A stretch of DNA of 63,986 bases, counting the filler, from Basidioascus undulatus (lineage: Eukaryota): the NCBI GenBank assembly GCA_000826855.1. It is 5 parts of 5 records of this genome, joined end to end, with 100 filler letters (N's around TTAATTAATTAA, not from the genome) between each part and the next. Parts side by side here need not be neighbours in the genome. Positions count along the whole stretch, not along the records: positions 13,089 to 26,052 come from JTLS01000856.1; 4 more parts are not named here. One strand, written 5' to 3'. Shown here one piece after another: positions 1-63,986 of the stretch. Each line of letters begins with the position of its first letter. The first letter of the stretch is position 1. A program made the translations under genes and the position numbers. Below the pieces are notes generated by a model, which made no database searches, was not told the origin of the DNA, and saw only the letters and a program-made list of their open reading frames with translations.

Positions 1-170
1 TTGGCTTAGATCAAGTGTAGTATCTGTTCTTTCAAGTTTGACAACTTGAACGAGGTCCTTGACCTCATCATTGTCATCTTTATTTTTGCGCGCGGCCGCC
101 CCCGTCCCTGCTTGCATACGGAGGCGGCGAGATGGCCTTGGGTTGCACTGCTCCGCGTGCCGTCAACGCT
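1..170 (+). ncRNA. U2: U2 spliceosomal snRNA (5' end truncated by window/contig start)
   Basis: TTGGCTTAGATCAAGTGTAGTATCTGTTCTT matches the conserved U2 5' region, with branch-point recognition GTAGTA at 17-22. Stem IIa TTCAAGTT/AACTTGAA at 31-50, whose loop is complementary to TGTCA at 72-76. Stem IIb at 52-66, Sm site ATTTTTG at 82-88, stem-IV loop TTGCAC at 143-148. Confidence 0.96.
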
Positions 171-3100
171 TCTTGATATTGTTGTGTATTAATGTAACCC
201 TAACCCTAGAGTGATAATATGTACAGACAGGTGACTGCACAAGACTGCAATTGCTGCAACGGAAAAAGGCCGTGCTATGGCACATCCAGGCAAATTGTCC
301 AGGCTTGACGGTGCAAAGTTCCAACATACGGGTCATGAATCCTGCGGTAAGCCTCATTGCCATTGAATTTATGAATGTCAAGTACTCTTGTGAAGCGCAC
401 GCAGTCTTACAGGTCATGGGCCCGTCGCTAACATCCCTCATAAACAGGCCTGGGGCTACCTAGTGCTCAAACTTCCCTTACACTGCGGGGCTTTTGGCGC
501 GCTCGGGCCTGTTTTTTTCCGTGAATAATCCTCAAGCAGTCGACTTCGAGCGAGAGGCAAGAAACTGCCTTGGTCTGCTTGCTGAGCACGGGTCGCTCGG
601 CACTATTACATTGGGCCCGGGGATTTTGGCAGCCATGCCCCGATTATGAGGTCAGTGAAGCCTTCAAGTTCCATCACCACTTGCAGTGGAAGATCAGAGT
701 ATAGTATACATGTTCTCATCGTCAAATACCGAGGTGTACTCGCAACGGCACAACGCTGGATAATTCATGTCAACTATTTAAGCACGGTCAAGTAGCCATG
801 CCTATAAATGTCGTCTGATTCATAATCAAAGCACGTCGGTTCCGAGAAGAACATCTGAAATAGGGGAAGGCTGCATAGTCGTACGTGGTTCGCAGTGGTA
901 ACGATGGCCTCGGGTCCGCTAACAGCTAGGCTCTCGACCGTTGAAGAGGCCCGCTTCCCCAGTCTGTTGCTTTGCCCTGCTTTCAATAAAAAATGCATCA
1001 GAGTCTGTACCAATGGAAAGCTGTGAAGGGCTCCAGAAGGCTCCAATTCCTTGGACTCACCGGAGCTTGCGGCACCATGCGTGCACGCACCATGTTGCAG
1101 AGCATGATCTTGCTAGCCTGCGGCAGGTTGGTGCCCCAAGACAGGCGATTTTGGGCAAGCCTAAACAGTCATAAATGTATAGCGGGATCAATTGCCACAC
1201 TCGGACACTCCAGCAAGCAGGGAATGTGGGTGGTTCCACGTACACTTTCCGCACTCCGTAGCGTTCTCTTCCACCTCCCCAGCCACTGAGCATTCTTGTC
1301 TGGTTTTAAAAAATCAGATTGTGTTTGCTATGTACGAGATTGTTTGTGCCTATGTACGAAGAACGGCCAGACTGGCCCTCACTGCAGCCACCTTCACCTC
1401 TTCTGGTAAACGACCCTTCCCCGCTTACCTACTGGCACGCCTGCATCCATAGGCCTTGCAGCTGATGTACTCAACCCGTCCACGTTCCCTTCTTTCCCCA
1501 CACACGTAATGTTGCCTACCGTGACGTATACAGTGACTCATCACACCATTCCTCCCTGTAAGCACGTAGCTTCGCGGTGCGCAACCTCTTTCGCCCTGTG
1601 TATGCCTCCAGCCTCCTCAATAACAGTCGGCCCTGCTACTATTGTGCCATTCATTGCAGGACGGCTTCTCATCTGATTGGACCATCTAATAACAGAAGCA
1701 CTTAAGGACTTGAGACGCGAACTGAAAACAAGGGGTAAGGGCGGCGGGGTTCCCTCTGTACCCTGCCCTCTCCACGCGTCCCCGCACGGCTGCAGTGGAT
1801 TCTTCTTCGACTCTGTGCGTCCTCGAAGATAGACCGCTTTTGTGCACAACTGCCTTGAAATTCTTCAGCTTTTTCAATCTCTGTGAGTCACTTTCTGAAG
1901 TGAGCCAAGCGTTTTAGTTCTGGACCTGCACGCTTTTGGTATATCCTCGACGGCTGGCACTGCCTTGTTCGGCAGACTTTGTTTTGTGCCGGGAACATAT
2001 AAAAACTACCTCAGCCGAACCTCAAGAGCCTCAAGTGATGGGTATGAAATCAATTTCTGGCCCATCTGTCCTTCCTGAGCATTCAAAATGTTGATCAGGC
2101 GTGACATGATGGAAAATGTTGACGTGTCAGTAGCGCTTCCTATCAGCTCAAAGTCGACTGACATCCCCCCATGTCATGGCACTCTCCCTCCAAAGCCGTT
2201 TCTGTGCGAAATAACCTTCCCCCATCAAAGAATGAGTGAGTATCAATCACCCAATCCTCAACTGGACCCCAACTTGCCCATAGACGGAAGATGTGATGCG
2301 GTCTTTGCCAAGTCACAAAGACCACGTACAGCTGCGAGCTAGCCGGGCACGTGTCAGGTTGCGAATATTCTACTGCGTAAAGCCTCCGCCCCGTTTTCAG
2401 GTGGCTGTCCCATAGATCGAACCGGACAGTGGAAGGGGGTAGGTGATGTAAAGGTTACGGCTTACAAGGTGATATGTGAGAAGAGCGGTAAGGGTGTGGC
2501 TGAAGAAAGCTGAAGGGAAGGTGAGAGATGGTCAGGAGGATGACAGAATTTTGTATGAGCTGTCTCAAAAATTTGGTGAGGATTGGCGCGAGAAGATTAG
2601 AGGAGAGAGGAGAAAAGGAGAGGAACAGCGCAGTCATCGGGTCCAGCCAGGCACACCCAGAAGACTATTGCCAGTGTGACACCACCAACACCCCCTTGAA
2701 GCTAGAGCCTTCTCCAAATTTTGGAAGCACAGAAGGGTTGAGGTTCAGGAGGGCTGTCAGAGTATAGGAGGGACCGGGCGGGGGGTGGGAGGGAAGGCGA
2801 CGTTCCGCAAGTGTTTGGTAAGTACATCCTTTCTTGGACACCGAGCACTCTTCCATTTGCACAGTATTCTGAGCCTTCCGCCCCGATTCTCCGTGCTTCT
2901 GCGCACGGGCTAACTACTCATGGTAGTAGAATACGAAGACTGGCAAGATCAGTGATATGCGCAGTCGATCGCGAGTTAAGTGTGCCCAGGTGCCAGTTCA
3001 ATAATAACGCGTCGCATTTGTCTCTGTACCTGTTTGTGCCTCGATCTTGGCGAGCTGGTGTGACTCGTTGGGTCGTTGAGGACGCCACTGTGTTCAAAGC

Positions 3101-6020: not shown

Positions 6021-9000
6021 TCATTCCACCCTCCCACGCTTCCTCGGGCCCTCGCCTGACTCGCCAGCGACGCCGCCCGCATGCGCCCCCTCACTCTCCT
6101 CAGCCTGCGTCTCCGCCATCCCAGACCGCTTCTTCCCTGCAACCAACGTGCCGACCTCCTCTGTCGGCGGCTCGTCGCCCTGCGCTTCCACGAATCCTCC
6201 GCTCTCGCCCCCAGCGAACAAGTCCCCCAGGTCGCCGGTACCCCCGAACGCCGCCGCTCCGCTTGCCAGATGTGCCTGCGCCGACGCCGGTGGGGCGGGA
6301 GCGAGCGCAGGCGCACGCTGCTTCACTGGGCTGCTCCCGGTGCTCGCGTTGCCGTGCGCATACTCGAGGCCGACAGTGAGCGCGTCGTTGGTGCTCGAGA
6401 ACCGCTGGAAAGAACGCGATGCGTGTGCGCGCGGCGTGGACGACGTTGACGCCGCCATCGCCGGCGGCTTCATGGGCATGCTTTGCGCGCTCTTGTGGAC
6501 GTGATCTGTCCCGACGGTAAGCGCTTCGTTGAAGCTCGCAGCCTTCGACAGTGTACGGCGCTGCTGGCGCTGCTGCTGCTCTGCGTGAGGCGTCGGGCCC
6601 GTTCGCTCGTTGTTGTCGGGTGAGTTGGGCGCCGGTGCCTGGCAGGGCGACGAGGCCGTCGGGGCAAATCGGTTTGGCTCGCCGAGCTTCTCGCGCGCGG
6701 CGCGGAACGCGTGCTGAACGGCGCCGAACTGATAGTTGAGTCGAGAGAGAAAGTCAGCTTGCGGCCACGAACAGATGCAGAAGCCGAATGGCGAACCTTG
6801 GAGGGGTCTGAAGGTGGAAATGGTGGTCAGTCATTCTGCTGGACACATGCAAGCCACATGGACATAGTAGGCGCACCCCTCGTAAAGCACCGAAGCCAGA
6901 TCTCCTCGAAGCATTCCGGACGGGAGTAGCTCCACTGGTCCGGACGCATCAAGAAGCTCTCTGTTACAACAGAGCCATCATGTGAGCATGCCATCTTTTC
7001 CCCTTGCGACGGGCCTACGAATCGAGGGCAACGATTGGACTTCATACGCACGGTTCGGCCCACCGCCTTGCTTGCTCCAGAACTTGACCTTGCTCGCAGG
7101 GTCCACCTTGCCCATGCCGTGGTGGATCTTGGTCCTGCAGCGCGACACAAAGCCCCATACCCGCTCATTTAGCCGAGCCGTTGACCAGCAAAGCCGGGCC
7201 GCAGGCGACGAACGTACCAGTCAACGATGATGTCATTCTCGTCGAGCGGCTTGCCATCCACCGCACAGCTCGCAATGAATGCGGGCGTCAGTGCGTCTCG
7301 GTACTCCTTGCTGATGTCCTCGGACGGGTACGTCGAGTAGTCGACGCAGCGGTACAAGTCGCGCCGCGAGAGTCTGCGCAGGAGCGCACGCGCCTCTGAG
7401 AGTTCCTGAGATGTGCAGCATACCAGGGCAAAAAAGTGAGAAGAGGGAAGAGACGTAGAGAAGGCCAGAAGGCGCACGGGTAAGATCGAGCGCTGAATGT
7501 CCTCGACGACAGAGTCCGTCAAGTACAGGTACTGCTCTGGATCGTCGATTTTGGAAGAAATGCCGAGGTGCTTGTCGGCCGCGATCAACGCGTCGACGAT
7601 CATGTACTCGATTGCCTTGGCTGTCGTCCGTGCCCGCCTGTTGGTCAGAATGCTTCCCAAGTCCCAAGACGTAAGGCTGCGAGGAAACGCACAGGCTTTG
7701 TGGGTATAAATCCGCCTGTGAAGGGACCACCGCGTGTGGAAAAGTTCCGCGATGTTGACCACCTGCAATCCACAGCATATTCCAAGTCAGAACGGCGGTG
7801 GCACGTAGTAGCATTTGCGGCAAGCTCGAGAACATGGCACTCGAACCTCTTTGTGGTCATAGCAAATGTCATCGCCGACCACGCGCACAGACTGGAGGAT
7901 GCGCGTCGTGTCGTGCGTGGAGTTGATGCCAAGGTTGCGAGTCTGTGAGTGGTCCTCGCCCGTCAGTAATCCAGACTGTTCGCCAGAGTGGCTGGGAGAT
8001 GGGGAGTGAAAATGCGAACGTCGCGGGCGATGTACTGTCATACGTTGACTGAAATCAATATCCTTTTGGCATGGGGAAAAGAAATACGCAAGGAAATGGT
8101 AGGGAGGGTCAGGGACATACGTCAAACTTGTCCACGTCCAAGCCTGACACCGCGTTCGCGACGATCTGGAACAAGAACATCTTCTCAATCCTGCACTCAC
8201 CGCATTCGGACAGCACATATTGTCAGTCTACCTCATTTGGTTCAAATTGGGCATCTTCCCGCGACGCACCTGGTAGTGCCTTCCCGAGGCTTGCCCCGGA
8301 TCAAGTCCTGGATGAACTCGATTTCGTCATCTGCAACAAGGCGTTCGCCGCGCTCCGCAAGCTCCTTGAACAGCGCAGCGAGCATCATCTCGCTCGCTTC
8401 CTCGTGCGACCATTTCTTGTCAGGACGCGCGCGAGGAATGAGAGTGTTGTCGAACACCTGCAAGGCGAAGCGATTGAAGGGTTGAGGACCGGAGGGAAGA
8501 CGGAGAGAACGAGGGCGCAGAGGTAGAAGGAGCACGGACGTGGGAGAAAGGCCCATGCCCAAGGTCGTGGCAGAGACCAGCGACTGTCAGGCAAGGGCGT
8601 GAGCAGAGCTAGGGCGCGGAGCATGGCAGGGTGCGTACGGGTCACGCAGCGCACGTCGCGGGCAGTAATCTTCCGCTCGGGGTGGCGCTCCCGGAGGAGT
8701 TTGACGACCTGGGAAGCAAGGTGTGCGGTGCCTAGAAAAGGCCTCAGGCCGAGCTTCGTCAGCTGGGACGCGCTGAAGGAGGATACCGAGAAATGAAGGA
8801 GCGCACCGATAGAGTGTTCAAACCTGTTGTGCGTCGCGCCCGGGAAGACGTAGTAGGACGATCCGAGCTGCTTGAGATTACGAAGACGCTGGAACTGGGG
8901 CGTGTCGATGACTTTGAAGCAGATGGGGTCTGTGACCGCCCGACGCCCAGCCATGGCGCGCCTTCTCAGCTAACCGATGCTCATTCTCGTAGACACCGAG

Positions 9001-12988: not shown

Positions 12989-13088
12989 NNNNNNNNNNNN
13001 NNNNNNNNNNNNNNNNNNNNNNNNNNNNNNNNTTAATTAATTAANNNNNNNNNNNNNNNNNNNNNNNNNNNNNNNNNNNNNNNNNNNN
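12989..13088. other. Artificial contig-joining linker (N44-TTAATTAATTAA-N44)
   Basis: 100-nt spacer carrying a 12-mer with stops in all six frames. Identical to the other three linkers. Confidence 0.97.
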
Positions 13089-13626: not shown

Positions 13627-14848
13627 ATGAACTCCCAGGTCCGCTCCCCCCACCACGCGCTATCTCCCCGTCAGCTCACATGATGTTCTCATGTTCTCAG
13701 ATCGCGAACCTCGCTCTCTCTCTCGGGCTGATGCAAGGTTCGCCGTTCTCCCACCGAAACAAGGAGGAAGATATTGATGATGGGGAGTGTTGGGTGTGGG
13801 CAATCAGTTGCCCGCAAGATCCCCTTCGACGACGAGAAGGTCCTCCTCGGCGTCCGGATAGGCTACGTCGCGAGCATGGTCTTCTCCTACATCCTCTTCC
13901 AGTTCATTGCGTCCAAGGTATCTCTCCTTCCCCCTCTCCGTCCCTTCCTCTTACCTATCTTTCCCCACTCTCGCTCTTCCCCTCCCTTCCCTTCCCTCTC
14001 CCCGACATATCCTGACGTGAGGAGGAACACCAGATCCGCAAGAAGAACGATACGACCGTGCTCAAGTACGTTGAGCCCAAGAGCCCGATGAGCCAAGAAG
14101 AGCCCCAAGTCATCACCACCACCAACCGGGACTACGACCTCGGGGAGGTGTCCAAGCTCGTCCGTCCTTTTTCTCCCTCTCCCCCTCCTTCTCCTTCTCT
14201 TCCTCTCCTCCTCTCTCCATTCGCTCCCTCCTCTTCCCCTCCACCTTCCACCCCCCTTCCCTCCTCCCTCTCTTCCTCCCTCTTCCTCCCAATCCTCCCG
14301 CAACTCCACCTCTCCGACGCGAATCAAACCTGACCTGAAACCCAAACGAAACCAGATCAAGGGCCTCTTCACCTCCCTCGCGATGATGGCGTTCCTGCAC
14401 GGGTACATGAAGTACACCCAGCCGCTCTTCATCCAGGGCATCCTCGGCATCAAGAACGCGCTCGATTCGAAGCCGGCCAAGATCTACGTGTGGGGGAACG
14501 TGCGTCCCGCTCCTCTCCCATCCCCACCTTTCTCTCCCTCTCCCTCTCCCTCTCCTCTCCTCGGTTCGACCTGGCGAAGGCGGAGACTGATGCGCGGGGT
14601 GTGGTGTTTGTTGGGTTGGGACGGAAACAGTCCGCCAACGGCGACCTCAAGCGCCCGTGGAAGGCTGCGAACCCGTTCGGCCTGCCCGGTGCGTTTTTCC
14701 CTTTCCTTTCCTTCCCTTTCCCTTTCCTCTCCCCTTCTCTTCTCCTCTGACTGACGCTTTTTTTCAAACCGCAGGCGCCGACAACGCCACCGACGCAGCG
14801 TCCATCAAGCAGGCGGAGAAGATTGGCGCGGCGAAGAAGGACGAGTAA
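13627..14848 (+). CDS. PHO88: Pho88/Snd3 ER membrane protein (SND targeting pathway), multi-exon
   Basis: MNSQ|IANLALSLGLMQ|VARKIPFDD..|IRKKNDTTVLKYVEP..TTNRDYD..|..MMAFLHGYMKYTQPLFIQGI..|GDLKRPWK..KKDE*. Confidence 0.9.
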
Positions 14849-16111
14849 GGGCGCCCGCCCATGTTTCGGTCTGCGGGATCCGATCGGGAGGAGTGAGGAG
14901 AAAGGAAGTGCGGAGGGTGCGAGGACGGCCGCAACGTCAGGTAGCGTTGGGACGGTTTGAAAGGCGCGGTGTGTGGGCAGTGGGAGTGCGGATAGTGGAG
15001 GGGGTCCTGTTGTGCTCTTTCGTTCGGTTTGTAACGATGCTCTGCGCGCGTGGAGATTGGCGAGTGAGCGGAAGGGCGTACGTGCGTATGTGCGTATACT
15101 GCGGTTCGAGAATGGTTTGTGTTGGGACTGCGTTGCGTGGGCAGCGGACCGTGGGGTGGAGCGGAGCGCGTGGATGGATGGATGCCCCGAAGTTGCCATG
15201 AGTGGTAGTTGATACGAGAGCAGATCAGGCTGGACTGTACAGGACAGGACAGGGCGTGGTTAATTCATGTCTTCGTTGTCGGCTCGTGCACGTTTTATAT
15301 GGAGATCAAATGCGGGAGATAAGAGGACAGCTGAAATAATAGGTAAAGAGGGAGCAAGAGGGCTGCGAAGCCGCTCTTAAAGCCCCCGTCGCTTTTATTT
15401 CATCGGTCTAGGTCAACCTAGGCTAGGTCAACCTTTGGTGGCTTATTGGATATTAGAAGCAAGAGGACAGGACATTGAGGTTTTAGTAATACTAATACCC
15501 AAAAACTCAACATGACAAAAATGGAGGTGAGGGAAGGCCTAATAGGGGAAGGGGGCGGCGACCATGTGCGTTTATTCAGTACCCAGCTGAGTAGTCTGGT
15601 CTCGCGGAGTCGGATGGCTATGGGTCTGGCTAGACGAAATTTAAAACAGTTGTAGCAAAACGAGGAGACCTGATTCGGAGGGCAAGTGCAAAGCTGACGA
15701 GGGTACCTTGTGTTCAGGCGAGGCTGCATTCGTGCTTCGCTGGACAGGCTGTGTTTGATTCGGGGATTTCCAGAAAAAAGGTCTGTAGGAGGGAGAAAAG
15801 AAGAAGAGATAAAGGCTTTTCAAACATGCAGATATTCGTTAGATGGAAGGCGGAAAAGCATACAGCCCTGCAGGCGGAAGTGGGGGTCTTGTGGGTCCAA
15901 AGACTGACAGGTGTTTATCTGCTTTGTGCTCTGAGGGGGCACTTAGCGAAGGTGTCCCTTGGGCTTGATATACTAAGCTATGAAGGGCAAGGTGAATATT
16001 AAAGATTACTCTGTTCGGGTCTTACGAGGTTGAAGCAACCCGATCGCAGCAAAATAAGGCGAACCCGACAATCGGCGGACAGCCCACTTCTCCCCATCGC
16101 ATCACGCCAGC

Positions 16112-16116
16112 AAAAA
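16112..16116 (-). terminator. RNA polymerase III terminator (T5) of the permuted tRNA gene
   Basis: TTTTT lies 5 nt after A37 of the 5' half (…CGTA CTGTC TTTTT). There is no T4 or longer run anywhere in the predicted transcript upstream of it. Confidence 0.7.
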
Positions 16117-16121
16117 GACAG

Positions 16122-16205
16122 TACGAGTGGCGCGCTCTACCACTGAGCTAAGGGGGCATCTGAAATGAATGCCCTCTGGCTGGATTGAACAACCGACCTC
16201 ACCAT
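16122..16205 (-). tRNA. tRNA-Thr(CGT), circularly permuted: 3' half 16205-16170, 12-nt linker 16169-16158, 5' half 16157-16122
   Basis: The minus strand reads ATGGTG AGGTC GGTTG TTCAATC CAGCC AGAGGGC A [TTCATTTCAGAT] GCCCCCT TA GCTC AGTGGTA GAGC G CGCCA CT CGT A. Reordered, the halves give a 72-nt cloverleaf with anticodon CGT at 16125-16123 and the break at 37/38. There is one C5.A68 acceptor-stem mismatch. Confidence 0.85.
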
Positions 16206-16268
16206 TTCGCTGCCGAACGACTAAGAAGACGTTGTAGACTCAACTCTGGAGAAATTATTCCAGTGTTT

Positions 16269-16280
16269 CACACTGCACTA
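16269..16280 (-). promoter_or_regulatory. Candidate Pol III A-box upstream of the permuted tRNA
   Basis: TAGTGCAGTGTG resembles the A-box consensus TRGYNNARNNG and lies ~78 nt upstream of the B-box GTTCAATCC (16190-16182). Confidence 0.5.
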
Positions 16281-16771
16281 AGCACAATCCGACATCGTAT
16301 TTCTCTTCCAATGGGAGGTTTGGGAGACGTAGGGCTCAGGAAATAAGTGTTTAAGTAAGCGTGGGCACAGTCAAAGTTTGGTCTGTTCGAAATCGACAGG
16401 CAAGCGCACAGGCCTTGGGGCGCCGCCGGCTATGACTGGAACTGGCACTAGAAAGAACCGACTGGCCGCTTCTACCTTGAGACATGAGTTGAAAGGATAA
16501 GTAACCTGTATCAAATCTGCGGAGGCGCATGGCAGCTTCGTCCTGCCAGCAGTAGTATAGCTGTTGAGAAAGAAAGTAGACCAACTCACCCTAGTATCAG
16601 GGTGCGTACTGGCTGTAATATCCATACCCAGCTGACTATGGCTGGGGTGGGTCACCACACGCGTCGCTCTTCGCCCCTTTCCTCATTCCTCCTCCCGCTC
16701 TCACGCTCTCGCGCTCGCATATCCTGCTCATACGGACGGCTAAATATCACGGGGACAGTATAGGACGGAGA

Positions 16772-21104: not shown

Positions 21105-22846
21105 ATGTCCTCCGAGATTCTCTCGCAGCTTGACAAACTCGGGGCGGTCCGCCAGTTCGACGCGTTCCCAAAGACCTCGGCCTCGTATCAGGCACGCGCC
21201 ATCTCCAGCACTCCCTCCTGCCAAACGCTGACCTATTGCGATACAGGTCCGCTCCGGGAAAGGCGGATTCGCGACCATCGCAGTCATCGTGCTCTGCTTC
21301 CTGCTCGTTATCAACGACTTAAACGAGTTCCTCTGGGGCGAGCAGGAGTACGAGTTCAGCGTCGATGCCGAGCCGCACGCGGACTTGCAGCTCAACGTTG
21401 ACTTGACTGTCGCGATGCCTTGCCATTGTGGGTAGCTCTCATTTGTTTGAAGCGGGTAATCGGGTTGCTGACTGGGTTGGAATCGTAGTCTTGTCGGTGG
21501 ATGTGCGGGACGCGGTGGGCGATCGGGTGCGGCTGAGCAAGGAGCTCAGCATGGACGGGGTGCGTCTAACATTCTTTCCATCCCTTTACCTTGCCCCGAA
21601 GCTCTTGAACGACTTAGTTAATTTACACTCCGGTCTTCTTTCGATCAGACCATCTTCGATACCCGCGTGGCCTCTCAGTCCGTCGCATGCTTCCCTGCAC
21701 CCCACCATCCGCTCACCCACCCCTGACCATCCTCAGAACCTCCTACTCCTCCCCAACCGACGTCTCCCGTGTTGTTAAGTATGGGCGCAAGTCGCGCGGA
21801 TGGTTCTCTCACTCGCGCGCCAAGTTCGCGCCCACGCGCAAGCCCGTGCCGAACGGACCGGCATGCCGCATCTACGGCAGCTTCGAGACGAAGAAGGTCA
21901 CTGCCAACCTGCACATTACGTGCGTCCTATACTTATTTGGGAAAGGGGAAGAATATGGGCCATACTGAGACGGCACGGAGAACAGTACGCTTGGACACGG
22001 CTACATGAGCTTCGAACACACCGACCACAAGCGTGCGTCTCGGGCTTTAGTCTCTGCTGTGGGCGGGACACACGCTCACCCACGAGAATACGGACTCAGT
22101 GATGAACCTCTCGCACTTCATGAACGAGTTCTCGTTCGGGCCGTACTACCCCGACATTACGCAGCCCCTCGACGGCTCGGTCGAGGTTACCGACCAGCGT
22201 GCGTTCATCTCCACGTCCCCATGCGCAGCCGACTACATGCTCACGCGTTTTCTTGGCGCGGGAAGCTTTCCCCGTTTACCAATACTTCTTGACCGTCGTC
22301 CCCACCACGTACGTCGACGCGGGCGGGCGCAAGATCAGCACGAACCAGTACGCGGCGCATGACTACGTCAAGACTGTGAGGCATGGCGAGGCGGTGCCTG
22401 GTTCGTCCCCACCTTTGAATTCTGCCGGGCTTTCTTCATCCTCACATTGTCACTCTTTATCAGGCATCTTCTTCAAAGTGCGTGTCTCGTTGTCTCCGCC
22501 AGCCTCTCTCGCGCGCGCTTTACTATTGACACTCCATTGTCTCCTCTTGCAGTACGAGTTCGATCCCCTGCACCTAACCCTCCGCGAGCGCACGACATCC
22601 CTCCCACACCTTCTCGTGCGCCTCGCGGGTGTAATAGGCGGCGTCTGGTGCTCCGCGGCGTTCGCGTTGCGCGTGCTCGATCGCTTTGCGCCCGCGCCGC
22701 TCAAGCCGCACGCTGGCGAGAAGCCCGCGCCGGCGATTCCGACGAGCAGCCCGGCGCTTAGCAGGGGGAATTCCGGCGGATGGCTTGGCGGAGGGGGGCG
22801 CGGCGCGGGATGGGGAGGCGGCGGAGATGGGGTAGGGTGGCGATAG
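21105..22846 (+). CDS. ERV41: ER-Golgi COPII vesicle protein Erv41 (ERGIC2)
   Basis: FDAFPK, LNVDLTVAMPC, CRIYGS..KKVTANLHIT, NLSH..EFSFGPYYP..PLD, YQYFLTVVPTTY, PGIFFK|YE, LVRLAGVIGGVW. The first intron (21192-21246) is GC-AG. Confidence 0.92.
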
Positions 22847-26052: not shown

Positions 26053-26152
26053 NNNNNNNNNNNNNNNNNNNNNNNNNNNNNNNNNNNNNNNNNNNNTTAA
26101 TTAATTAANNNNNNNNNNNNNNNNNNNNNNNNNNNNNNNNNNNNNNNNNNNN
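26053..26152. other. Artificial contig-joining linker
   Basis: N44-TTAATTAATTAA-N44. Confidence 0.97.
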
Positions 26153-37077: not shown

Positions 37078-37884
37078 CTACGCATCGTCCTCATCCTCGT
37101 CCTCGTCCGCCGCCTCCCCAGACGCCTTCACAGCCGCCGCCAGGTTCTCCACCTGTGGCTCGGCGGAGCCGCCCAGTCGTTGCCCTACACCACCCCACGC
37201 ACACAGAATTCAGTCGGCGCCGGGTGAAAGCGGAAGGAGAGGAGGGAAGAGGGAAGAGGGACAGTGGTGTGGAGGAAAGAGGGAAGAGGGACGCACGGAT
37301 GAGAGTGTGGATCGCACTCTCGTTTGCCCGGTCTAGCCGCGCGAGCTTCTTCCCCAGATCGCGCTTCAGATCCCAGTTTGGTTTTTTGGGCGCGATGTTG
37401 AAGAGGTCCTGTAGTCGCACCCGGATGTCAGTTCGCGTCGAGCCAGGTGGGGTACCCAGCATCACTTCTCCCCGGACGAGGTGTGGGAAGAGAGACGCAC
37501 GAGCTCCTCCTTTCTCCTCGCCTCATCTTCCGCAATGATCTTCTCCGCCAAGCCCTCCACGGCGCGCTCGACCGTGTCTTCCTCCGCGTCTGTCTTCTCC
37601 CTCTTCCGCGCCTCGCCCGTCGTCGGGTCGTAGTTCCGGAACTTGACAATGGCGGGACTGTTGATCGACCAGTGAGTTACCGTATGAGGGGAGAGAGTGG
37701 GATGGGAAGAACGCACGCTGATGAATCCCCGTCCGCTGCTCCATCGCCCTCCTGCTCCGTCTTGCGCTTGCGCAGCGCGAGCAGACGCGCCTTGCGCGAT
37801 TCGGAGGCGGCTTCGAGGGACCTGTGTGCCAGGGTCAGCATGCACCTGGAAATACAGCTCCCTTGGGGAGGCTAGGACGGACAT
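37078..37884 (-). CDS. CWF18: Spliceosomal protein Cwf18 / CCDC12
   Basis: MSLEAASESRKARLLALRKRK, KFRNYDP, DLFNIAPKKPNWDLKRDL..KLARL. Acidic tail ends at TAG 37078-37080. Confidence 0.9.
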
Positions 37885-38097
37885 TTTGGTGAAAGTGTAG
37901 TGGTGAACGCGGTCGTGGATCTTGGGCGAGTGCGAGGTTGAGCGAGCGACGCGCCTGAGGCTATCGGCCGTAAGCGCTACTATGGTCTGAAAGCGATCTA
38001 CTAGCCATGCCCGGGGCGACCCTTGCTCTCCGCCACCACCATTCCTCCCACATCCTTCCTCACACAAAGCATACAGGCATCTCACACCAACAATCTC

Positions 38098-39115
38098 ATG
38101 GTCTACGGATCCCAAATAGTCCGGTCCCGCGCGTCCCGCGCGTCCACGTGCTCCGAACCCCGCAGCAGCAGCGGCGGGCGGCACGTCCTCTGTGCGCCCG
38201 AGCTAGCGGACGACGGGACGCCCCTGTGCGGGTGCGGCGGCAAGGCCGCCCAGCTCACGAGCCACACGGCAAGCAACCCCGAGCGCGACTTTTGGGCGTG
38301 CAGGAAGAAGAGGGACGATCCGAAGCGGTGCAAGTTCTTCTGTGTGTCCCCCCCTTCCGAGCCCCACCATCTTCCGCTTCTCGCTGGCTGATGGTAGGAC
38401 GGATAACCAGGCTGGGCAGATGAGATGCGGCAGCGCATCGACGCAGCCGTGGCCACCCATCCGTCGTCCTCCGGGTCCGCCCCGCCCTCGACGCCCTCCG
38501 CCTCCGCCTCCGCCTCCGGAGGACGCACGCTCGGCTCCGCCCATTCCGCGCGCGCCCCTCCCTCCTCCTCCGCCCCAAAACGCCGCCGAATACCTGTCGA
38601 GGAAGACGGCGGCTCCCCTTCCGAGGAGATCGCTGACTTCCATCCCCCTCCCTCCGCTGGCAAGCGCCGCATGATCGAGGAGGATGAGGCGTACCCTTCC
38701 GACCCGATTCGCTCGCCGTCGCCCGAGGCGCAGGCGGAGCCTGCAGAGCAAGGCCGCAAACGCTTCCGCTTCTCGCAGCCGCCGTCGTCGCCTGCGGTTG
38801 AGTTGCAGGGCGGATGGAAGGTGTTTGGTTCGCAAGAGCCGGAGACGCCTTCGAAGGGGAAGGGGAAGGAAAAGGACGGCGCGCTGCCTACTCCGCCGGC
38901 GAGTGGAAAGGGCAAGTCGCAATGGGAGAAGATCAGGGACGATCCCGTGCGTCCTATCGCTTCCCGTTCCACTCTTCTCTTCCTCTGCGCTCATCCTGTC
39001 CGCCTCCCAGAACAACCCCTACCACGCCCGCGCCGCCGCGCTCGCGTCCGCATCCGCCACACCCACCTTCTCCTTCCCCACTTTCGCCGCCCCCCCCTCC
39101 TCCTCACTTCTGATC
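38098..39115 (+). CDS. GRF-type zinc-finger protein (3' truncated by contig end)
   Basis: PLCGCGGKAAQLTSHTASNPERDFWAC..KRCKFF|LW matches the zf-GRF pattern. A disordered region runs on to the gap. Confidence 0.75.
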
Positions 39116-39215
39116 NNNNNNNNNNNNNNNNNNNNNNNNNNNNNNNNNNNNNNNNNNNNTTAATTAATTAANNNNNNNNNNNNNNNNNNNNNNNNNNNNN
39201 NNNNNNNNNNNNNNN
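39116..39215. other. Artificial contig-joining linker
   Basis: N44-TTAATTAATTAA-N44. Confidence 0.97.
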
Positions 39216-52175: not shown

Positions 52176-52275
52176 NNNNNNNNNNNNNNNNNNNNNNNNN
52201 NNNNNNNNNNNNNNNNNNNTTAATTAATTAANNNNNNNNNNNNNNNNNNNNNNNNNNNNNNNNNNNNNNNNNNNN
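52176..52275. other. Artificial contig-joining linker
   Basis: N44-TTAATTAATTAA-N44. Confidence 0.97.
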
Positions 52276-62982: not shown

Positions 62983-63986
62983 TCAGCCATGCCACCTGTT
63001 CCCCGGCTGGGCGTTGAACGTCGTCGCGTACGAGAGCTTCTCGCGCGTGGCGATGACGGACTTGTGCAGCTGGAGCGTGTCAATCGCGGTCTGCGCGTGG
63101 GTGCCCAGTCCAGAGCGCGTCAGCTTCCTTCCTCCTCGCGCCGCAAGGAGAGAAGACGAACCTGCCACGTATCCATATCGAGCTCAAACACCGCCTGCTG
63201 CTTCTGCAGTCCCTCCTTGTAATCGAGCTCGCTCGGGGCCTCGCACGCCACTACCCCACGTCCGCCATCCCCCTCATCAGTTTTTCCTCTACCAAAGGGA
63301 ATAGAAAGGCAGGGAGAGGGGGAGAAAGAACGCACTGAGCATTGGCTCTGCGGTGTGCTCGTCGGGCACGAGGCTCGCCTTGCCGTCGCGGATGAGGAAC
63401 GAGAGGTAGAAGAGGTTCTCGACGGACTGATCGAAGTGCTCGGGGTTGATGATGAACCGGAAGAGGTTGATCCCGTTCTCGCCGCCGTGCATCTCGAGCA
63501 GGCGCGAGATCTGGGCCGCCGGACGGTCGGGGTGATTAGAAGGAGGGAAAAAAAAAGGGAAGAAGGGGGGGGAAGGCAGACTCACCTCAGTCACGTTCTT
63601 CGTCGTCTCGTTCTCAGCGCGCTGGATGTCATCCTCGTTCAACTGGCGGGTGCGAGAAGGGCCAGATGCCAGTCAGACTGTGCTTCGGAGCAACAGATGC
63701 GCAGGGGAATGGGGGCCAGACGGACTTGTTGAGGCGCCGTCTTCGCCGCGACGTTCTTTTCCAGCTTGGAGCGTTTTGCCGCCTGCGTGCGCTGCTTTTG
63801 CTCCACCGCCAGGGGACCAAGCCTTTCCCCACCCAAGTATCAGTCCTTCCGCCGCATTAGGTACTGAGCCCCCTCTGAAGACGCACATGAAGTCCATCGC
63901 CGGCGCCCTCCTCGTCCTCCTCGCTGCCAGATCACCCAGCACGCCCCAATCGAGCTTCGGCCCGCCCCGCCCTCCTCACCAGTCGT
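62983..63986 (-). CDS. NSE4: Smc5/6 kleisin Nse4 (5' beyond window)
   Basis: RRAPAMDFM|.GPL; ENETTKNV; INLFRFIINPEHFDQSVENLFYLSFLIRDGKA; QAVFELDMDTWQ. Confidence 0.92.

Follow-up and report, generated by a model that had tools for sequence, protein, structure and literature searches.

Background

Circularly permuted tRNA genes carry the two halves of a tRNA in reversed order on one strand, with a short spacer linking position 73 to position 1. Table 1 of PMC3978253 gathers 34 of them, from Cyanidioschyzon merolae, four prasinophytes, the nucleomorph of Bigelowiella natans and Thermofilum pendens, and their intervening sequences span 1-74 bp. According to that source, the type II genes have an intervening sequence of 5-64 bp, a relaxed bulge-helix-bulge-like (hBH) junction at 37/38, a T-stretch past the 5' half and, no more than 50 bp upstream, a TATA-like element; hBH junctions of this kind are typical of nuclear introns as well as of type II permuted genes, and they suit the eukaryal endonuclease (PMC3978253). 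In algal permuted pre-tRNAs the joining comes first and gives rise to a circular intermediate (PMC3978253). Regarding their origin, the same text credits Tocchini-Valentini 2012 with the proposal that permuted genes arise from co-transcribed tandem tRNA genes containing introns. More recently, permuted tRNA genes were described in the trebouxiophyte Auxenochlorella in a 2025 preprint (PMC12633428), where they came to light through an incomplete tRNAscan-SE set. A 2026 review still places permuted tRNA genes in algae only. We found no report of a fungal permuted tRNA gene in the full-text literature, subscription journals lying outside its coverage. In the literature searched, one archaeon and a few algae are the only hosts reported for these genes so far; a fungal case would be new to the kingdom.

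Here we describe such a candidate in a basidiomycete, in a window of 63,986 bases, by which we mean the whole stretch of DNA that was analysed. The closest described systems are the type II genes of the prasinophytes (Ostreococcus, Micromonas) and of the B. natans nucleomorph (Maruyama et al. 2010, tabulated in PMC3978253). The fungal locus resembles them in having the 3' half first, a short intervening sequence (12 nt as against 5-64 bp in those genes) and a T-stretch past the 5' half, in lacking an intron, and in its predicted relaxed hBH-like junction at 37/38. It differs from them in its basidiomycete host, in being apparently multi-copy and in being known from DNA alone; furthermore, its isoacceptor, Thr(CGT), is absent from the green-algal cases listed in that table. 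The permuted tRNA-Thr(CGT) gene of C. merolae (Soma et al. 2007; PMC3978253) matches the locus in amino acid, anticodon and type II 37/38 junction, and, by the account in PMC3978253, the two also have in common an AT-rich element upstream and a T-stretch downstream, although the intervening sequence is 31 bp in the alga and 12 bp here. According to the same text, C. merolae has no recognisable TFIIIC subunits for binding the A and B boxes and its transcription is TATA-driven, whereas the fungus is expected to have TFIIIC, and circular intermediates and aminoacylation have been demonstrated in the alga, whereas the fungal locus is known from its sequence. In Auxenochlorella the halves are likewise reversed, but the host is a green alga (PMC12633428).

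Results and discussion

Organisation of the locus and the joined tRNA

Read base by base on the minus strand, the locus consists of a tRNA 3' half, a 12-nt linker, a 5' half, CTGTC and a run of five T's. Its parts are the following:

16206-16214, minus strand: leader GGCAGCGAA, of which GGCAG pairs with the trailer CUGUC and CGA with U33-C34-G35 in the unconstrained minimum-free-energy (MFE) fold
16170-16205, minus strand: 3' half of tRNA-Thr(CGT), from A38 to the discriminator A73, holding the T arm and the B box (about 16191-16181); from the sequence and ARAGORN
16158-16169, minus strand: 12-nt intervening sequence (linker) TTCATTTCAGAT between A73 and G1; from the sequence
16122-16157, minus strand: 5' half of tRNA-Thr(CGT), from G1 to A37, with the A box at 16150-16140 and the anticodon CGT at 16125-16123; from the sequence, ARAGORN and Rfam
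16117-16121, minus strand: trailer CTGTC, partner of the leader; from the sequence and the unconstrained fold
16112-16116, minus strand: T5 run, candidate RNA polymerase III terminator, 5 nt past the 5' half; from the sequence

This layout agrees with the structural definition of a type II (37/38) permuted tRNA gene, that is, reversed halves on one strand with a short spacer linking 73 to 1. The T-stretch is also where such a gene has it: the T5 stands after the 5' half, and the longest T run in the linker is 3, so the linker holds no T4 or longer.

Joined by script at 37/38, the two halves were recognised by ARAGORN as one tRNA-Thr(cgt) of 72 nt; its cloverleaf is normal, with a single mismatch, C5.A68, in the acceptor stem. 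The original prediction, that the halves are broken at 37/38 and complete each other as one tRNA-Thr(CGT) with this very mismatch, is thus borne out. It had also called the D and T stems perfect, which is not strictly so for the T stem, where there is one G.U pair; the anticodon stem has one as well. By eye, the joined molecule has U8, A14, G18G19, U33, A37, G53-T54-Psi55-C56, A58 and C61, together with G15:C48, G1-C72 and A73, all of them typical of eukaryal elongator tRNA-Thr. The halves are clearly far beyond chance, since they amount to 72 nt with all the usual tRNA invariants.

Predicted fold of the precursor

From the leader to the T-run, the unconstrained MFE structure (-33.0 kcal/mol) is a permuted cloverleaf: T arm, D arm and anticodon stem are all present, the linker caps the acceptor stem, and 8 leader pairs with the trailer and the anticodon loop are added. 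At the junction, the leader and the trailer form a helix of 5 bp, a central helix of 3 bp reaches nucleotides 33-35, and the bulges are of 2 nt. The cut site after A37 lies in one of these bulges (U36, A37) and the cut site before A38 lies in the other, formed by the last A of the leader and A38 and placed opposite C32; one extra unpaired A stands between the leader CGA and A38. The pairing of CTGTC with GGCAG and of the anticodon loop with CGA, the unpaired cut sites and the relaxed character of the junction had all been proposed beforehand, and each of them appears in this fold. In the model, then, the 37/38 junction is a relaxed BHB-like motif and not a strict 3-4-3 BHB.

Regarding the leader/trailer pairing, it goes only modestly beyond chance. 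Flanks drawn at random from the window were tried 3000 times: 98 trials gave at least 8 such pairs, and in 342 the MFE was no higher than that of the real flanks.

Detection by standard finders and searches of the window

ARAGORN did not see the locus as written, and the Rfam tRNA model missed it in the whole window, both at the gathering score and at E up to 1, as had been anticipated for standard finders. Searched by itself, the small region did give an Rfam tRNA match, based on the 5' half and below threshold at 23.9 bits.

We also looked for related elements in the window. Both strands of the 63,986 bases were scanned with ARAGORN in rotated chunks, which gave no other permuted tRNA, blastn gave no further copies of either half in the window, and the ARAGORN and Rfam searches of the window left no ordinary tRNA gene. 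Outside the window, the layout of 3' end, linker and 5' half had 0 matches in two metagenome pattern scans and 0 matches in one scan of prokaryote genome contigs.

Two other calls were set aside. ARAGORN reported a tRNA-Arg(tct) of 91 nt at 21833-21923 on the minus strand, which looks false: it has neither an A-box-like nor a B-box-like sequence, goes unreported by Rfam even at E = 1 and is contained in an ORF with an ERV (ER-vesicle-transporter) domain, so that it was rejected as a control gene too. A match to the YrlA-type tRNA-like Y RNA (RF02553) at 16104-16213 on the minus strand was likewise rejected, with 17.4 bits against a gathering score of 69 and E = 0.91; what the permuted unit has in common with YrlA is a rotated tRNA topology, not membership of the family.

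Copies in public sequencing data

Contigs of two public DNA runs, X1 (possibly the source of this record) and X2 (from another study), were aligned to 15700-16650; a further run, X3, was left out, as it had the 3' half only, at low depth and with 4 differences. A contig of 88 letters in X1 is identical to 16122-16209 and thus bridges the 3' half, the linker and the 5' half, with 36 and 40 letters either side of the linker. Furthermore, in both X1 and X2 contigs from the flanks of this very locus extend to 16138 and 16192 with zero differences. As the core occurs more than once in the genome, the whole stretch is not covered by any single contig.

One of the repeats is a second permuted copy. 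It is found in a contig of 12,390 letters in X1 (depth 16.7, the own-locus flank contigs having 15.8-20.5) and in a contig of 28,968 letters in X2 (depth 45.4, own-locus flanks 44-45). These depths are those of single-copy sequence. In both contigs the unit 16121-16208 is complete and ungapped and differs at 9 positions, and the sequence beyond the unit cannot be aligned. Of the other reversed half-pairs that the original prediction had named as support, the genome outside the window yielded this one and the rest of the window yielded none. The possibility of a misassembly, which had been raised with the prediction, was answered by the same data, namely by the bridging contig in X1 and by this paralogue in X2.

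Seven of the 9 differences could be placed: 5 fall in the linker (16159, 16160, 16162, 16167, 16168) and 2 in the halves (16153, 16175). The other 2 may sit near the ends of the matches and could fall in the halves. With those 2 left aside, the placed differences affect 2 of the 72 nt that make up the halves and 5 of the 12 nt of the linker (Fisher p = 0.0005). Read on the gene strand, those in the halves are C5>G (16153) and A68>U (16175), one partner in each half, so that the C.A of acceptor pair 5:68 becomes G.U; by our arithmetic, the chance that a second random change meets the partner of the first is 1/71. Halves that are kept while linker and flanks vary freely, as observed in one genome and with 2 differences unplaced, would be expected if the gene needs both halves together and discards its linker. 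This second permuted copy is the best evidence for the locus and suggests, indirectly, a gene in use.

Regarding the number of copies, the identical 88-letter contig has a depth of 45.6 and a contig of 39 letters (16109-16147) a depth of 56.7, which is about 2-3 times that of single-copy sequence. Among the 13 of 26 loose contig ends that were listed, several distinct upstream flanks meet the common leader, at 16208, 16214, 16221, 16224 and 16228, and three distinct other downstream flanks (at 16117, 16118 and 16122) each have, within about 10 nt of the 5' half, A4-A5 on the plus strand, which reads as T4-T5 on the gene strand. Including the window's own, all 4 distinct downstream flanks seen among those listed ends thus have T4-T5 after the 5' half. 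The upstream and downstream flanks cannot be assigned to the pairs that form individual copies. In a genome with about 56% G+C such recurrent T-runs are not expected by chance, and they would fit polymerase III units that end just past the 5' half. No joint marking a conventional gene with these halves was among the contig ends listed, contigs being unable to show that such a gene is absent.

Transcription

Fungi are expected to depend on TFIIIC. At this locus the B box (about 16191-16181) is upstream of the A box (16150-16140). An order of B before A is unsuited to TFIIIC, according to PMC3978253. In the upstream flank there are two candidate elements:

16252-16259, minus strand: AT-rich AATAATTT, a weak candidate for a TATA-like octamer, 47-54 nt upstream of A38, by analogy with PMC3978253
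16271-16282, minus strand: CTTAGTGCAGTG, similar to positions 6-17 of the 5' half (A-box-like), about 80-90 nt upstream of the B box

The A-box-likeness of CTTAGTGCAGTG was not supported by local alignment of the 5' half with the upstream flank, as 690 of 2000 shuffles scored as high. Transcription is the weak point of reading the locus as a working gene, and both the box order and the weak or non-significant promoter candidates count against that reading.

Origin of the permuted unit

Past the 5' half there is a further stretch that recalls a tRNA:

16081-16109, minus strand: degenerate remnant resembling a 3' half without T arm, part of the 23.9-bit Rfam tRNA match, which is below the gathering score

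It is made of TGGCG (16109-16105, the exact complement of CGCCA, a strand of the anticodon stem), 16 nt, AGTGGGC (16088-16082, complementary to the acceptor strand at 6 of 7 positions) and a T. The combination of TGGCG and AGTGGGC occurs in 1381 of 296516 random window segments, in a post hoc test that was designed after the Rfam alignment had been seen. A local alignment of the downstream flank with the 3' half was not significant (129 of 2000 shuffles as high), and no outer 5' half was detectable in the upstream flank, where the 690 of 2000 shuffles mentioned above apply. Among these tests for outer halves, the post hoc one on the stem complements was the only one to stand out. From its sequence, the stretch 16109-16081 may be a decayed outer 3' half that lost its T arm, and it would fit a remnant of rearrangement equally well.

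A probable source of the gene is a tandem pair of genes with introns that were transcribed together and whose outer halves later decayed. The locus is like that model of origin in the short, terminator-free linker between 3' half and 5' half and in the decayed outer 3' half downstream. It is unlike the model in that the outer halves are non-functional here, and hence only the permuted reading can give a tRNA.

Interpretation of the locus

The reading that we prefer, with a probability of roughly 0.6, is that the locus is a circularly permuted tRNA-Thr(CGU) gene of type II (37/38) which works and which belongs to a small family in a basidiomycete genome. RNA polymerase III would start upstream of the 3' half and stop at the T5, giving a transcript with leader, 3' half, linker, 5' half and trailer, in that order. 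This precursor would fold into a tRNA body with the acceptor stem capped by the linker, while the leader and the trailer, paired with each other and with the anticodon loop, would make the two ends mimic an intron at the canonical 37/38 site. Recognising the intact tRNA body and the 37/38 junction, the tRNA-splicing endonuclease would then cut after A37 and before A38, tRNA ligase would seal A37 to A38, and RNase P and tRNase Z would excise the 12-nt linker, after which CCA would be added. If cutting and joining came first, a circle would be formed, as in algae; if the ends were trimmed first, there would be two base-paired pieces, and the final tRNA would be identical in either case. In budding yeast the trimming of the ends is nuclear and precedes splicing, which is cytoplasmic.

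The same locus may be looked at as a dead remnant, left when a tandem pair of intron-containing tRNA-Thr genes was broken, its inner halves surviving and being spread by segmental duplication with no tRNA as a result. The degenerate stretch past the 5' half that lacks a T arm would suit this, and so would the roughly three copies with an identical core and 13-16 nt of flank, which look like a recent duplication, as well as the wrong order of the A and B boxes and the C5.A68 mismatch of this copy, which speaks against a working gene in any case. However, an old paralogue that keeps its halves, with its placed changes in the halves confined to one base pair while linker and flanks diverged, speaks against a sequence that yields nothing, and so do the T4-T5 runs in every distinct downstream flank seen among the 13 of 26 loose ends listed. 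The inner halves are also flawless where the outer ones have decayed or gone, and selection on the inner pair can be argued from this. In principle, intact halves could also be maintained through gene conversion from conventional Thr genes. We consider that a dead remnant is unlikely, but it is the more serious objection when compared with an RNA that is expressed without decoding, to which we would give a small chance. Such an RNA might be a short 5'-half transcript started from the internal A box, a mimic of tRNA, or the product of a dispersed repeat derived from tRNA. An A box followed by T5 could indeed give a transcript of the size of the 5' half, the topology is reminiscent of the YrlA tRNA-like module in spite of the weak Rfam match, and the unit is multi-copy with short flanks common to the copies. 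But an RNA of this kind has no need of an anticodon stem built from two halves, of U33, A37, A38 and the identity features of Thr, or of leader/trailer pairing across 37/38, and the old paralogue retains the 88-nt core alone and no longer repeat body.

An assembly artefact that fused two tRNA fragments is hardly credible. The halves are repeated in the genome and the whole stretch is in no single Logan contig, which is what would invite such an error, but the 88-letter contig crosses both joints of the linker, the same layout is found within long contigs from two studies, and the flank contigs of the locus itself run into both halves with no difference.

If the fungal family is real, as the reading of a working gene would have it, the phenomenon would be extended to the opisthokonts and to organisms whose transcription relies on the standard A and B boxes and TFIIIC. 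It would also offer a tractable setting in which to study transcription with the B box ahead of the A box, the choice between a circle and a two-piece intermediate under an order of the yeast type (ends first and cytoplasmic splicing later), and the origin from tandem pairs, the decayed outer half being still visible. Furthermore, fungal tRNA sets that seemingly have no Thr(CGU) or other isoacceptors may be incomplete, because standard finders miss such genes.

A bolder proposal is that every tRNA-Thr(CGU) of this basidiomycete comes from the circularly permuted family. On the sequence evidence we put this forward tentatively, as something that could well be so but to which we would give slightly less than even odds. 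If true, it would be the first supply of this kind in fungi and in opisthokonts as a whole, and it would mean that a four-subunit Sen endonuclease and a Trl1-type ligase mature back-to-front precursors in an organism containing TFIIIC. With such an all-permuted supply, a two-piece intermediate might occur instead of a circle, and either a leftover A-box-like element or the AT-rich element upstream might drive transcription.

Host and context of the window

The fungal origin that had been assigned to the DNA was confirmed by protein matches. An exon ORF with an HD domain (7172-7786, minus strand) had 32 of them, the best being from Wallemia at 48% identity, followed by many from Agaricomycetes; two weak green-algal proteins were also among the 32. 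Since basidiomycete proteins top the HD-domain matches, the host belongs to the basidiomycete fungi and is not an alga. A green or red alga as host was rejected on these grounds and because a gene of the Pho88 family lies near the locus.

The window contains a U2 snRNA gene and intron-rich genes with Pho88, cwf18, ERV, P-type ATPase, GST and Nse4 domains, among them:

1-171, plus strand: U2 spliceosomal RNA gene, cut by the start of the window (104 bits, model positions 17-192)
13732-14751, plus strand: Pho88/SND3-like exon
37094-38202, minus strand: exon of the cwf18 gene
63292-63672, minus strand: exon of the Nse4 gene

The genes are broken up by many short introns, and actually only one ATG-started ORF of at least 300 aa was found in the 64 kb. 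Four regular pairs of 44-N runs, about 13 kb apart (12989-13088, 26053-26152, 39116-39215 and 52176-52275), look like masking and not like assembly gaps. About 30 nt past the U2 gene, at about 198-212 on the plus strand, there are two telomere-like units (TAACCCTAACCCTA), which form an isolated interstitial motif and no array.
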